Assembly (NCBI GenBank): GCA_035636595.1
Contig: DASPYU010000009.1
Location: 31,705 to 95,704, forward strand
DNA: 64,000 nt
Direction of reading: 5' to 3'
DNA from: Thermoplasmata archaeon
GTDB taxonomy: Archaea > Thermoplasmatota > Thermoplasmata > RBG-16-68-12
Shown: positions 3,135-7,835 of the stretch, piece after piece
Layout of the letters: each line of letters starts with the position of its first letter
Position numbering within the stretch: position 1 is the stretch's first letter
Program-made: the position numbers and the translations under genes
Notes under the pieces: generated by a model
Told to the model about the DNA's origin: nothing
Database searches by the model: none
Seen by the model: only the letters and a program-made list of their open reading frames with translations

Positions 3135-4748
3135 TCAGCTGGGTCCCGACTTCCTGCGACGCCGGATCGCCAGGTACGCGGAGCCCACCGCGATTGCGCC
3201 GAGGATGAGGATCAGGATCCAGAAGTCCGTCGCGGGCGCTCCTTGGGGCGAAGGCGCGCTGCCGCCGTAGATGAACGGCACGCTGGCTTCCGCCACATTG
3301 CCCGCTTTGTCCGTCGCCCGGACGGTCACGAAGTGCGGCCCGATTGAGGGCGATGCGACCGTGTACGTCGTCGCGCCCGTCGCCACGACGGGAGGCCCGC
3401 CATCGATTTGGACCTCGACGCGGTCGAGCCCCGAGCCGCTATCGGAAGCGGTCCAGTCCACGGTCAGAGTCCCGTAGACCGTGGAGCCACTCGCCGGATT
3501 CTGCAATCCGACGGAAGGCCGCGTCGCATCGACGGTCACGGAGATCGTCGTCTGAGCGGTGTTACCCGCGCGATCGAACGCATTGATCACGACGGTCCGC
3601 GCGCCTTCGGCGACGTTCGGGAACGCGTAACCCGCTGCCTCATTGACCCGCACCGGGGTCGCGCCGTCGAGCGAGAGTTCGTAGTGATCGATGCCGGAGA
3701 CGGCATCGGAGCCGAGCCACAACAGCTGGAGCTGCTTCGTGTTCACGTACGGACCCTTCGGCGCGACCACGTTCAGGACCGGAGGCGTCGTGTCGACGCC
3801 GAACCCCAGGGTCTGCGACGCGAAGTTCCCCGCACCGTCGGTCGCGAGCAGGTTGATGACGTGGGCCCTTTCGTCGAGGTTCGTGAGCGCATAGGAGGTC
3901 GCTCCCGCCGCAAGGTCGACGGGAGAACTCGAATCGACGGTGAGGCGGAGCGAAGCGATCCCCGCTCCCAAGTCTTGAGCGGTCCACCGCACGTCGACGT
4001 CGTTCGTGCTCACGAAGGCGCCTCGCTGCGGCGACGTGATGTCGAGGGCCGGGGCGTTCGAGTCGTAGTGGAACGGGATCACGAGCTGCGCCGCGTTGCC
4101 CGCGCGGTCCGTCGCCGTGACCATGGCCGTGTGGTCCCCTTGGGTCGTCAAGGCCAGGTCCGTCTGTCCGCTCGCGTCCGTGAAGGCCATCGGCGCCGCG
4201 CCGTCGAGCGAGACATTGATCGCGTCGACGCCGGAGACCGCGTCCTGCGCGACCCACTTCAGGACCTTGCGGCTCGTCCACTCGCCGGGGACCGGCGTCG
4301 CGACGAAGAGGTCCGGCGGGCGCGTGTCGAGGGTCGTGGCCGCCTTGACGCGGTCCGGGCCCGGCTCCCGCCAGTGGCCGCGGTCCACCGCGACCGTCGA
4401 GAACGCATACACGTCCTCGCCGCCTGTGTAGTACGTGTCGAAGGGGATCGTGCCGTTGAGCTCGTCCGTGCCGAAGCCGCGTTGGCCGTACCACTCGCCG
4501 CTCGGATTCCAAGGGGGCGCGTAGAGGGTCCAGTTCGGCGAGCGCGTGCTCCGGTAGTAGAGCTCGGTCCAGAAGACGCCGCTGTTCCCTGCGCTCCCGT
4601 TGGCGGTGAAGTTGAGGGAGACGACCTGCTGGTTCGTGTACTCTCGGAGGGGCGCCAGGTCCGACTCCGGGAGGCGGTCCGCGCCGACGGTGGTCAACGG
4701 AGACGATACCGGAAAGAGTCCCACGCTCGGAAGATACGCGGCCAACAC
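3135..4748 (-). CDS. Cell-surface protein with tandem Ig-like/PKD-like beta domains and a C-terminal TM anchor
   Basis: 537 aa with an N-terminal hydrophobic signal, repeated ~90-aa T/S/V-rich beta-domain segments, and a C-terminus [25 protein letters not shown] (TM helix plus basic tail, typical archaeal surface anchor). Confidence 0.6.
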
Positions 4749-4999
4749 CAGGCCGGCGACTAGAATGGCGGCGAGTGTCGCGACCCTCCTCGACGCGATG
4801 GAACCCCTCGCGCGGCACCATGCCGGGATGGTACATAGCCCTTCCGTCGCGAGGCAGCATCGGGAGGCGGAGGACCATATGTCGGGATGAATAAAAAGGT
4901 TCGATGAACCATTTCACGGTTCGAGGGGACCCGCCTCCACTCCCATCATCGAGGGCCACGCGGAAAGCTTCATCTCTCCCGCGGCGCTGTGCGCGCGTC

Positions 5000-5071
5000 G
5001 GGCCGGTAGATCAGCGGAAGATCGCCTGCTTTGCAAGCAGGAAGTCCTGGGTTCAAATCCCAGCCGGTCCA
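5000..5071 (+). tRNA. tRNA-Ala (anticodon UGC)
   Basis: 72-nt cloverleaf: acceptor GGGCCGG/CCGGTCC with the G3:U70 alanine identity pair, anticodon stem CCTGC/GCAGG with loop TTTGCAA, T-loop TTCAAAT. CCA is not encoded. A T-rich stretch follows at ~5080-5090. Confidence 0.85.
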
Positions 5072-5260
5072 CTCCAGTTCCATACCTGCCGAGGTTCAAA
5101 TCTACTTTTAGGACCGTCCCGGACTTAGTTTTGGGATCGTCTGCTTGGCCCTGCGCGAGCCATGGAACCGGGCTCCTGTCAGGCACGGAGTGGGTTCAGC
5201 GGGAACGAGGGCGGACCACATCATAATCCGAACAGAAGGGGGCGTCCGGCGCCGCGACCT

Positions 5261-5752
5261 TTAGTCAGAAGTCCGAGAGCTTTCATTCTCGAACTTCACT
5301 GACGAGAGGATCTTGAGAACGGTGGTGAGCTCTGAGGCACCAATGGGAGTAGACGCGTCTCTCGTGGGTAGAGTATAGGTCACAATCAGAGCGATTGCTC
5401 CGCCAACGAGGTACCAGCTGTGAACGGTCGTCAAGTCATCCGTAGGTGTCAACTTGCCCGTGCTCATCGCGTAAACTGCAACTCTCCCACCCAACTGGAC
5501 GCGCTCCGACCCAGCCGTTTTCTTCAAGACGTCATCCAGCAGGCCAACGGCCGGAGCTGGGGACCCTCGCGCGTCCTTGAACTTGTATCCTCGCAGCCGC
5601 AGGTTGCCCAATCCGCCCGCCGTATTCCAGAATTGTGGAACGCCGTCCTCGTCGGGCTCTTGCTTCCAATCCTCGGGATATTCGACCGCGTACCAATTAT
5701 CCGGCGCCAGATAACGCTTCAAGGTCAACGCACGGATATCTCCGAAGCTCAC
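5261..5752 (-). CDS. Hypothetical protein (GTG start) inside a lower-GC, direct-repeat-flanked segment
   Basis: 163-aa ORF with no recognisable family. Local GC is visibly lower than the surroundings (~52% against ~65%). Confidence 0.4.
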   Translation of the reverse strand: MSFGDIRALTLKRYLAPDNWYAVEYPEDWKQEPDEDGVPQFWNTAGGLGNLRLRGYKFKDARGSPAPAVGLLDDVLKKTAGSERVQLGGRVAVYAMSTGKLTPTDDLTTVHSWYLVGGAIALIVTYTLPTRDASTPIGASELTTVLKILSSVKFENESSRTSD

Positions 5753-6100
5753 AAAAATGTAAGGCGCCCGCCCTTCAAGGGCGGGCTTGGCGGGGAACGG
5801 GGGCTACGACAACAGAATCCGAACAGAGGGGGCTTCCGTCGCTAGGGGTCTGAACCTCAACAAGTACAAGCCCCAGCCTGTCCACTCTGCCGACGCACCG
5901 CGGAGTCGTCTAGCGGCGACGATGCTTGATCCGATGCGAGGGGCCCTTGGCCTTGCCGCGGCGGGCACGACGTCGCGCGGCCCGCGTCATCCGGATTTCC
6001 TTGCGCGCCACGCGCGCGGGAGGATTCAACCGCTATTTGAACCAAAGCCTGTCAGAGACAAACGAAAAATGTGAAAGGGGCCCGCGGACCGCAGGCCGTT

Positions 6101-6622
6101 TCATCCGACCGTGACATGGCCCAGGACCGGCGTGAAGGTCCAGCCGGAGGCCGTCATCACGATGGACCTCGACAAGTCGATGTCGACGGTCAGGGTCGTC
6201 GTGCTGCCGGAACGAATCTCGAAGGGCGTCGTCGTCTTCAGCTCGCCGGACGGGACCGTGAACACGACGTTCGTGCCGTTCGTCAGGGTTCCCGTCGCGG
6301 ACGCGACGACGATCCGGATCTGCGTGTACTTCCCCGGGCCGAACCGCGCGCTCGCGAGCAGCTCGGAGACGTTCACGAAGGACGCGAGATCGATCGTCGT
6401 CCGGGCGAGCGAGACGTTGTGCCACCCGGAATCGTTCCCGGCCCCGGCCTCGTGGATCCACACGTCCGTGAACGCGATGTTCACGTGGGACCACGCGCCG
6501 GGCGCATCCTGGACGCGGACGTCCATGGCGCCCTCGTACAGGTACACGTACGCCGCGAACCCGCCGAGGACGACGAGGGCCGCCAGGACCAGTGCGAGGA
6601 TTGCGCGTCGCATTCCCTTCAT
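6101..6622 (-). CDS. Hypothetical secreted or membrane-anchored protein
   Basis: 173 aa with an N-terminal signal/TM segment (MKGMRRAILALVLAALVVLGGFAAYVYL) and a T/S-rich beta-type domain carrying NxS/T sequons. Confidence 0.5.
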   Translation of the reverse strand: MKGMRRAILALVLAALVVLGGFAAYVYLYEGAMDVRVQDAPGAWSHVNIAFTDVWIHEAGAGNDSGWHNVSLARTTIDLASFVNVSELLASARFGPGKYTQIRIVVASATGTLTNGTNVVFTVPSGELKTTTPFEIRSGSTTTLTVDIDLSRSIVMTASGWTFTPVLGHVTVG

Positions 6623-7649: not shown

Positions 7650-7835
7650 ATGGACGAAGACAGAGGCGGAAGACGAGGCGGAGGCGGCGGCGGTTACGAC
7701 CGAGGCCCGCGTACAATGTACGACGCGGTGTGCTCGGACTGCGGCCAAGCCACCCAGGTCCCGTTCAAACCGGACCCGGCCCGACCCGTCTACTGCCGAG
7801 ATTGTTTCGCAAAGCGCCGGCCGCGACGGTTCTAA
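7650..7835 (+). CDS. Small zinc-ribbon protein with a Gly/Arg-rich N-terminus
   Basis: 61 aa: N-terminal RGG-like stretch, then CSDCG..x16..YCRDCF (CxxC..CxxC zinc ribbon). Confidence 0.5.
   Translation: MDEDRGGRRGGGGGGYDRGPRTMYDAVCSDCGQATQVPFKPDPARPVYCRDCFAKRRPRRF

Follow-up and report, generated by a model that had tools for sequence, protein, structure and literature searches.

A mobile single-gene cassette beside tRNA-Ala in a Thermoplasmata archaeon, and its relation to a family of integron-like arrays whose core comes from the gene for RNase P RNA

The segment beside tRNA-Ala and its gene

The subject of this account is a segment of about 0.6 kb beside a tRNA-Ala gene in a 64 000-nucleotide stretch of DNA from a Thermoplasmata archaeon (contig DASPYU010000009.1; the whole stretch is referred to below as the window), which we think is probably a small integrative cassette: one open reading frame (ORF), for a protein of 163 amino acids, lies between two short direct repeats. 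The archaeal nature of the window is evident from genes for aEF-2, EF-1alpha and ribosomal protein S10 found nearby in the same contig family. Reading of the sequence bore out the physical description given in the original prediction: the direct repeats are present (AATCCGAACAGAAGGGGGCGTCCG at 5225-5248 and AATCCGAACAGAGGGGGCTTCCG at 5816-5838, one indel and one mismatch apart), the segment begins 152 nt beyond the tRNA gene, a GC-rich hairpin lies just inside the distal repeat (Table 1), and the GC content is low (58.2% for the 612-bp unit described below, compared with 65.4% for the window, which places it in the lowest 0.4% of stretches of 612 bp). The GC content at third codon positions of the ORF is 0.66, that of neighbouring genes being 0.73-0.93, and the segment is compositionally foreign. 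Likeness between the two repeats extends over some 50 nt, at 72% identity (5192-5241 versus 5783-5832). An 18-mer derived from the repeat was found at only two sites in the 64 kb when up to three mismatches were allowed, compared with 0.09 matches in shuffled sequence, so the repeat is not a chance match; nor is the segment an artefact of assembly, since six contigs, each from a different metagenome assembly (two from NCBI and four from ENA), carry the same structure with identities of 99.2-99.8%.

The ORF, which had been considered unannotatable, has a Pfam match, to DUF3805, that passes the gathering score (E 7e-13), and PDB entry 3HLZ is matched through the N-terminal domain of that structure (E 3.5e-7). 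Its relatives are few: of 1.84 billion representative clusters only 30 match, and the closest of them are 34-37% identical to it. Alignments with homologues begin at residues 9-13, and it may be that the annotated GTG start is wrong and that the true start, as judged from these alignments, is a TTG at codon 9 or 11. Comparison of the gene with its copy on a soil contig (L007; loci used for comparison carry the prefix L) gave a dN/dS of 0.33, which points to purifying selection and hence to a functional gene. A search of viral and plasmid databases had been suggested. No match to phage records was obtained by tblastn, PHROGs and PADLOC returned nothing for the ORF, and the only plasmid match was to a 26%-identical DUF3805 gene of Bacteroides, which sits in a housekeeping neighbourhood and so provides no functional lead. 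Nothing links DUF3805 itself to immunity, and an immunity role would be guilt by association at most.

The repeated module and its origin in the RNase P RNA gene

Both repeats are 23-nt cores of a longer, non-coding module, which is conserved and measures about 90 nt. It was defined in an alignment of copies from the window, from L007 and from five archaeal loci in metagenome-assembled genomes (MAGs), the last having come from a scan of 185 579 genomes with the 20-mer CCCCYTCTGTTCGGATTMTG. Read on the strand of the ORF, the module begins with the core (CGCCCCCTTCTGTTCGGATTATG) and continues through a linker (GTCGTCGAAG), a C-rich box (C-box, GCCCTCGTTCCCC) and a spacer of about 8 nt to a GC hairpin and a CCTT/T-rich tail. 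In the window one full module stands upstream of the ORF, its pyrimidine/T-rich tail abutting the ORF start, and one truncated module stands downstream (nhmmer match 5197-5245, profile positions 3-51), in which core and C-box are present and the hairpin is absent. The hairpin noticed inside the distal repeat is therefore a conserved part of the module rather than an incidental neighbour. It is also the sole conserved secondary structure: RNAalifold, applied to nine modules on both strands, found no long-range structure and nothing that pairs with the core, which is conserved as primary sequence and invariant in the alignment. Among 135 distinct copies the hairpin has a modal stem of 8 bp and is in 94% of cases stabler than its own shuffles; there are two compensatory stem types (CCCGCCC/GGGCGGG and CCGGGCC/GGCCCGG), and the loops are often GNRA- or UUCG-like on the ORF strand. 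The C-box resembles the core in direct orientation (CTCGTTCC versus CTGTTCGG), and at the other end of the cassette the pattern TCGCGG-n3-4-GGAC is common to other cassettes at the position immediately before the core (the pre-core of Table 1). An Rfam search of 4700-6200 at a permissive threshold matched the tRNA alone, with no RNA family over the module.

Table 1. Features of the cassette and its immediate surroundings (positions in the window)
Feature	Position	Strand	Basis or remark
tRNA-Ala(TGC)	5000..5072	+	ARAGORN; Rfam RF00005, 69 bits
Proximal copy of the tRNA-derived direct repeat (tRNA-Ala 3' end)	5051-5074	+	repeat family D2
Remnant arm of the downstream (resident) module	5197..5221	-	C-box GCCCTCGTTCCC at 5201-5212; no hairpin
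Core, copy 1	5222..5245	-	overlaps the originally noted repeat at 5225-5248
Pre-core GGTCGCGGCGCCGGA, conserved 3' end of the cassette	5245..5259	-	module alignments
Cargo gene, 163-amino-acid DUF3805-family protein	5261..5752	-	GTG start
Full module travelling with the cassette	5744..5835	-	nhmmer score 70, profile positions 4-95
Full module: core	5813-5835
Full module: linker
Full module: C-box	5792-5804
Full module: hairpin GCCCGCCC-TTCAA-GGGCGGGC	5766-5786
Full module: tail	5744-5765
Mobile unit, 612-bp cassette between the two cores	5222..5833	-	BLASTN against L007/L008, 89% identity
Degenerate direct copy (20/24) of the tRNA-Ala 3' end	5864..5887	+	0 such matches in 20 shuffles

Two minor observations on the arm may be mentioned here. 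In three loci (L012, 7599-7640; L023, about 820-860; L034, about 110-150) an extra hairpin of about 21 nt (ACCGCGGCTTACGCCGTGGT) stands between linker and C-box, and this junction is a tolerated insertion point in the arm. The tail of the window's module (CCTTACATTTTTG; 5744-5765) lies 25-35 nt upstream of the in-frame TTG codons 9 and 11 (5722-5728), and might be a TATA-like element for a leaderless transcript.

The repeats proved to be unrelated to the neighbouring tRNA gene; they are copies of the 3' end of the gene for RNase P RNA (rnpB). In many modules an upstream extension, GGCCAGGTGGCCGCCGTA, stands directly before the core, and at four loci the extended core runs not into a module arm, but into TGACGGCATTGG..., a continuation that is an archaeal RNase P RNA gene (Rfam RF00373, 169.9 bits at L085 and 122.6 bits at L045). 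The RNA ends ...CCAAUGCCGUCA-GAACAGAAGGGGGCGUACGGCGGCCACCU, and reverse-complementing its final 33 nt gives precisely the extended core; the whole 33-nt rnpB 3' end is found in more than 20 modules. This stretch includes a universally conserved element that we take to be CR-V (its consensus is visible in the Rfam match). In the window, 5230-5245 of the + strand (GAACAGAAGGGGGCGT) matches the 3' region of RNase P RNA at 16 of 16 positions, and 5821-5833 matches it with one deletion. The likeness of gene and module ends at ...TTCTGTTC, beyond which the arm GGATTATG... replaces the gene body; on inspection no homology could be detected between the arm and the part of RNase P RNA that precedes CR-V, and the arm gave no RF00373 match. 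The core is thus derived from rnpB. A derivation from the tRNA-Ala 3' end was also considered, and the likeness looked for was not convincing.

Arrays of modules lie at rnpB itself. Directly 3' of genuine rnpB genes, and co-oriented with the 3' end of the gene, they occur at L085, L043, L091, L045/L057 and L102/L127, an arrangement that carries the classical signature of what would be tandem, site-specific, integrase-mediated insertion at a stable-RNA gene, with older insertions displaced outward. There is no rnpB in the 64-kb window; the cassette there stands 3' of tRNA-Ala, with its relative orientation unchanged, so the window copy occupies a secondary site.

The family is a large one, and the suggestion that further copies of the repeat be sought was amply rewarded, many module-bearing matches coming from the 20-mer scan of genomes and soil metagenomes. 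At least 119 soil-metagenome contigs contained the 20-mer, IMG/VR viral contigs gave 0 matches, and the module-bearing matches among genomes were all to soil Thermoplasmata or 'Methanobacteriota' MAGs (bacterial matches at L013, L015 and L016 were set aside as chance, the module being absent or a weak partial only). An nhmmer profile of the module found 271 copies (177 distinct) at 129 loci in soil metagenomes or Thermoplasmata MAGs. Copies within a locus, of which there are up to six, are co-oriented, and no locus has them on both strands. Their median spacing and the median cassette length are both 665 bp, and the 143 module-to-module intervals represent 78 distinct cassettes, most with one ORF of 50-330 amino acids that may run with the module (23 cases) or against it (29). 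The family consists of integron-like arrays of cassettes in soil Thermoplasmata archaea, and our literature searches, of incomplete coverage, found no description of it. The segment in the window, rather than being the remnant of a larger element, is an intact member of this large group of integrase-less, mostly single-gene cassettes. That a repeat might turn out to be a common intergenic motif had been raised as an argument against insertion. The motif is literally common, with hundreds of copies in the lineage; it is so because it serves as the recombination site of mobile cassettes, and its abundance supports mobility rather than refuting it.

As to what the cassettes carry, most of 61 cassette ORFs scanned against Pfam had no match. 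Those that did included members of toxin-immunity families (WapI, Barstar, Imm26, DUF4926, RraB and DUF695) and of HEPN_AbiV, Band_7/NfeD and trypsin-like peptidase families; PADLOC found essentially nothing among them. In elements situated between the last module and rnpB at L043 and L091 there is a gene pair encoding a PIN-domain (VapC-like) and an AbrB/MazE-like protein, and an HEPN_AbiV gene follows the array at L154 (3001-3735), so toxin-antitoxin and defence-type cargo is associated with the arrays.

Mobility, a candidate recombinase and rival explanations

That the unit is mobile, and that its boundaries fall in the core, emerges from direct comparison of contexts. Two soil contigs (L007 and L008) encode a DUF3805 homologue with 88% amino-acid identity, and their DNA aligns with the window, at 89% identity, over exactly 5222-5833, between unrelated flanks without a tRNA gene. 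The homology ends at 5222, and the downstream boundary in L007/L008 retains the 23-nt core only. The DUF3805 cassette is also present at L049, L066 and L072, and four other cassettes likewise occur in differing contexts, making five multi-context cassettes in total; in each of these four, homology on the left starts 11-28 nt ahead of TTCGG, at the core's 5' edge. A chromosomal site that precedes an SRPBCC-like gene is polymorphic for occupancy and has been found in three states: with a single module (L010, L059, L079 and L124), with two cassettes (L023 and L090) and with two different cassettes (L029, L062 and L120). Identity in its flanks is 86-92%, and the only overlap of left and right alignments is 12-25 bp of core.

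Syntenic relatives of the window itself were located through the neighbouring DUF4382 gene. In the closest of these (L136-138) the flanking genes are about 80% identical and the upstream flank and module 86.7%, and the slot that holds the DUF3805 gene in the window holds a different cassette, with an unrelated ORF of 156 amino acids. On the tRNA side, homology of the window with L136 resumes at ...CTG|TTCGG, and the stretch comprising truncated module, spacer and tRNA-Ala is 95.7% identical (L136 4205-4458, window 5232-4981). Together these comparisons show gain, loss and replacement of cassettes, all of it at the core. The original idea of a small insertion with att-like repeats thus survives in so far as the unit is horizontally mobile and lacks an integrase of its own; that it is an eroded remnant from which the integrase has been lost does not.

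Some further features of these relatives deserve brief mention. The contrast between the 95.7% identity of the tRNA-proximal stretch and the figure of about 80% for neighbouring protein genes suggests constraint or recent exchange. In L136 (2600-3531, corresponding to about 5907/5884 of the window) there is about 930 bp of extra DNA, with ORFs of 114 and 56 amino acids, between the DUF4382 gene and the tRNA fragment described below; it is absent from the window and represents a further insertion/deletion polymorphism. We considered, and rejected, a mosaic make-up of the upstream module in the window, with some parts resident and others incoming, since the likeness of that module to its counterpart in L136 is explained by the closeness of both to the family consensus.

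Which enzyme might be responsible? Among 105 clusters of array-flanking proteins compared with Pfam, four belonged to Phage_integrase, more than to any other family. At L044 the stop codon of a gene for a tyrosine recombinase of 365 amino acids is immediately followed by an 8-nt junction (CCGCCGTA) and then by the first core of a two-module array, with an ordinary chromosomal gene on the recombinase's other side. A search for homologues led to L154, where the gene for a 58%-identical integrase (P0125), again with a chromosomal gene on its 5' side, ends 41 nt before a three-module array. The best NCBIfam match of the L044-type integrase is the archaeal XerA model (108 bits, cutoff 220), and the closest PDB chains are XerA/XerC-like. 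An Xer-like tyrosine recombinase is therefore our candidate for the enzyme, a link that comes from these two loci. An integrase-family hidden Markov model detected a close member beside the array at one of the 129 module loci (L044), many contigs being short, and tblastn with the candidate found none in the 64-kb window; with array-adjacent integrases so rare, and none in the window, the cassettes appear to depend on an enzyme acting in trans, as do the clusters of attC sites lacking integron-integrases (CALINs) among integrons. It should be mentioned separately that at L066 (3254-4657, oriented) an L007-type DUF3805 cassette lies 2.3 kb from a gene for a tyrosine recombinase of 467 amino acids, of a different and more distant type, with a nuclease-like gene and a helix-turn-helix gene between them, and that this copy may be inside a larger mobile element.

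Taking these strands together, we consider it probable that 5222-5833 is a non-autonomous, single-gene integrative cassette, mobilized by a tyrosine integrase supplied in trans, and that the primary target of such cassettes is the 3' end of rnpB. In its circular form it would have one recombination site and the DUF3805 gene, in the order arm, gene, pre-core, core, with a predicted circle junction ...GGTCGCGGCGCCGGACGCCCCC(T)TCTGTTCGGATTCTGTTGTCGTAG...; the site would be made up of the 3' pre-core, the rnpB-derived core of about 23 nt and an arm of about 70 nt with the C-box and GC hairpin. An Xer-like integrase would recombine the core of the cassette with that of the resident module beside tRNA-Ala, at a position expected to lie inside CCCCCTTCTGTTC, and the core would thereby be duplicated, one copy at each end, giving the two direct repeats. 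Repeated integration at the 3' end of rnpB would stack co-oriented arrays there, and modules carried elsewhere, for example to the tRNA-Ala island, would act as secondary landing sites. Given its likeness to the core, the C-box may be a second binding site, and hairpin and C-box together could be arm binding sites or RNA signals.

Several points weigh against this interpretation. The right-hand homology boundaries of the cassettes could not be placed, because the arms of all modules are alike, and inspection of the core revealed no obvious example of the dyad symmetry typical of the core sites of tyrosine recombinases. The evidence is comparative, a circular or excised form of the cassette not having been observed, and the suggested comparison with relatives turned up no precisely vacant counterpart of the slot in the window, which in L136-138 holds different cargo. 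The lack of a candidate integrase in the window has been mentioned, and elsewhere the association of enzyme and module is imperfect: five homologues at 51-57% identity (contexts L146-L153) have no modules, and of the three closest homologues with usable flanks only two have them (a 59%-identical integrase at L155, with only 146 nt of flank, has none). The more distant homologues seem to belong to ordinary integrated elements, which would restrict the association with modules to the closest clade. Finally, the window cassette is not at rnpB, and the route by which a module came to the tRNA-Ala island is unexplained.

The rival that fares best, which we nevertheless think unlikely, dispenses with a dedicated recombinase and treats the module as a conserved repeat that is merely dispersed, perhaps a promoter or terminator or a small-RNA unit; cargo between copies would be swapped or deleted by gene conversion or ordinary homologous recombination. 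Over about 90 nt the modules are 70-90% alike, enough for such exchange, and the window and L136 differ solely in the cargo between conserved modules, a replacement that could equally be the result of a double homologous crossover in the flanking modules. The GNRA- and UUCG-like loops and the pyrimidine/T-rich tail suggest an RNA-level role, and most arrays have no integrase nearby. At the downstream boundary in L007/L008, however, what remains is the 23-nt core alone, too short for homologous exchange, and the left boundaries of independent cassettes coincide at the core edge; moreover, co-orientation, an origin in the 3' end of a stable-RNA gene and stacking 3' of rnpB are hallmarks of integrase action, and integrase genes stand at the first core in two loci.

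More improbable again is the explanation first offered for the segment, that a larger element integrated at tRNA-Ala has decayed, leaving the 23-nt repeats as attL and attR and its integrase deleted. It has in its favour the absence of an integrase in cis and the adjoining tRNA gene, of which there is a real 3'-end fragment (5864-5887) just outside the upstream module, such that the tRNA and its copy bracket the whole 0.8-kb region. Comparable fragments are present in relatives, at L136 (3528-3551, orthologous), L141 (3164-3187) and L139 (5751-5774 and 6487-6510), and in every syntenic relative the tRNA-Ala copies bracket a single-ORF segment, the ORF differing each time; in L141 fragment and tRNA enclose a different single ORF and no module. 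Independently of that explanation, the differing ORFs indicate that tRNA-Ala is an integration hot spot in its own right, and an older insertion aimed at tRNA-Ala, which now encloses the cassette, would have its distal end at 5864-5887. The rnpB-type module probably arrived in that insertion and then became the landing pad for the DUF3805 cassette, an order of events deduced from the nesting. The tRNA-derived repeat, absent from the original prediction, is thus a separate, outer layer, whereas the 23-nt repeats come from rnpB; the 612-bp unit is found with both repeats intact elsewhere, away from any tRNA, it belongs to a set of 78 cassettes that are of similar size and share the module, and its cargo gene is under purifying selection. 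As an account of the two repeats, decay of a larger element is already largely refuted. The island contains one further repeated feature, an inverted pair (5083-5098 and 5851-5866, 81% complementary, with GAGGTTCA(A)ATC) that resembles the T-arm of another tRNA; a homologous stretch in L139 (5778-5806) reads as the 3' half of a tRNA with CCA (GAGGTTCAAATCCTCTGGGCTTCACCA), and the pair may be an att remnant of a further family of elements.

Comparison with known cassette systems

Integrons and CALINs (Ghaly et al., 2022; PMC9668308) provide the most obvious parallel. There, as here, mostly single-gene cassettes of about 0.4-1.4 kb, singly mobile and with diverse, largely uncharacterised cargo, alternate with a repeated recombination site, an integrase is absent from beside most arrays, and an Xer-related tyrosine recombinase is occasionally present. 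Could the window then hold a canonical integron cassette, with attC and IntI, in a CALIN such as those in archaeal MAGs? The homology break CTG|TTCGG does recall G|TTRRRY, yet GTTCGGA misfits GTTRRRY, and in place of the R''/L''-L'/R' inverted repeats of the attC fold there is only a local 8-bp hairpin beside a core that is conserved in sequence rather than in structure and is a copy of rnpB. The associated integrase is not IntI (on the IntI model TIGR02249, with a cutoff of 265, the L044 protein scored 51.7 bits and that of L154 37.6, through the C-terminal box only), its 3' end points to the array, cargo orientation is mixed, and the main site of the arrays is at the 3' end of rnpB, not at an attI. 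We therefore regard an integron proper as very improbable; Thermoplasmata are not mentioned in the archaeal integron paper. A transposon, or an element resembling a miniature inverted-repeat transposable element, with the repeats as target-site duplications, would also be a small element between direct repeats, and can be dismissed as the least probable of all: the repeat is identical at all the unrelated insertion sites and so is not a duplicated target, and there are no terminal inverted repeats, no transposase, no PHROGs hits and no phage matches.

A second parallel is with the rAID-1 (recombinase-associated acquired interbacterial defence) loci of Bacteroidales (Ross et al.; 10.1101/471110) and with polyimmunity loci (Zhang et al., 2012; PMC3482391), in which an XerD-like recombinase is followed by small, low-GC genes separated by repetitive intergenic sequences, and some of the present cargo (WapI, Barstar, Imm26, DUF4926, RraB) is likewise of toxin-immunity type. 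Here the array-head recombinase is seen at L044 and L154, and not in the window or in most arrays (many of the contigs being short). The present system differs in being archaeal and from soil rather than from gut Bacteroidales, in that its genes are not co-directional and most of its cargo has no immunity annotation, and in that the origin of its att site, in rnpB, is known. What defines membership of rAID-1 is a recombinase that shares 44% identity or more with the one of Bacteroides rAID-1 (10.1101/471110), and Zhang et al. (2012) reported extended polyimmunity loci from four bacterial phyla only.

Tycheposon islands (10.1101/2020.12.28.424599) and archaeal tRNA-integrated elements (PMC8371274) resemble the present family in that the 3' part of a stable-RNA gene serves as att core, older insertions are pushed outward with co-oriented partial copies of the gene, and there are integrase-less units flanked by att sites; the outer tRNA-Ala repeat of the window is exactly of their kind. 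The family integrates after the pattern of elements aimed at tRNA or tmRNA genes. In the cassette family, though, the target is RNase P RNA and the units are far smaller, typically of one gene, share a long conserved arm and also occupy sites away from the RNA gene. The window's cassette, with its single DUF3805 ORF and no integrase of its own, is unlike elements that integrate themselves at stable-RNA genes.

Cis-mobilizable elements (CIMEs), which are integrase-less units flanked by att sites, form a comparable class, and the integrative mobile elements exploiting Xer (IMEX) and the pdif modules of Acinetobacter plasmids are small modules with short sites that depend on an Xer recombinase supplied in trans. 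From Xer/dif modules the present family is distinguished by the want of a 28-bp dif-like site with inverted 11-bp arms, by repeats that are direct rather than inverted, and by a recombinase that falls below the XerA equivalog cutoff (108 versus 220 bits). On the sequence evidence, then, the system appears to be neither a canonical integron nor a decayed prophage. Use of RNase P RNA as an integration target was not found in our literature searches, whose coverage was incomplete, and is not mentioned in a 2021 review of archaeal tyrosine recombinases (PMC8371274).

Beyond the single cassette, we offer more tentatively, as possible rather than probable, the idea that soil Thermoplasmata possess a self-contained gene-capture platform, independent of integrons, with a dedicated Xer-like integrase, a recombination site based on rnpB and more than 78 single-gene cassettes. 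Cassettes, some of them for toxin immunity or defence, would be stacked at rnpB and at secondary sites, in an archaeal counterpart of integrons and rAID-1. If so, this would be a third independently evolved instance, after those two, of a recombinase coupled with an array of repeat-separated cassettes, and one in which the origin of the recombination site, in the 3' end of RNase P RNA, is unusually transparent; the RNase P RNA gene would join the list of integration targets, and part of the strain-level variation in gene content of these abundant soil archaea would be explained. A short, defined att site and a candidate integrase might also make a genetic tool for a lineage that has no genetic system. 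The cassette pool can be seen as a catalogue of small, rapidly exchanged archaeal genes, a minority of which point to interference competition.

Finally, and unrelated to the cassette, we draw attention to a protein of 61 amino acids encoded at 7650-7835 of the window, which is rich in RGG at its N-terminus, contains a zinc finger of the treble-clef type (PF23477, E 6e-20) and is conserved in the syntenic relatives.

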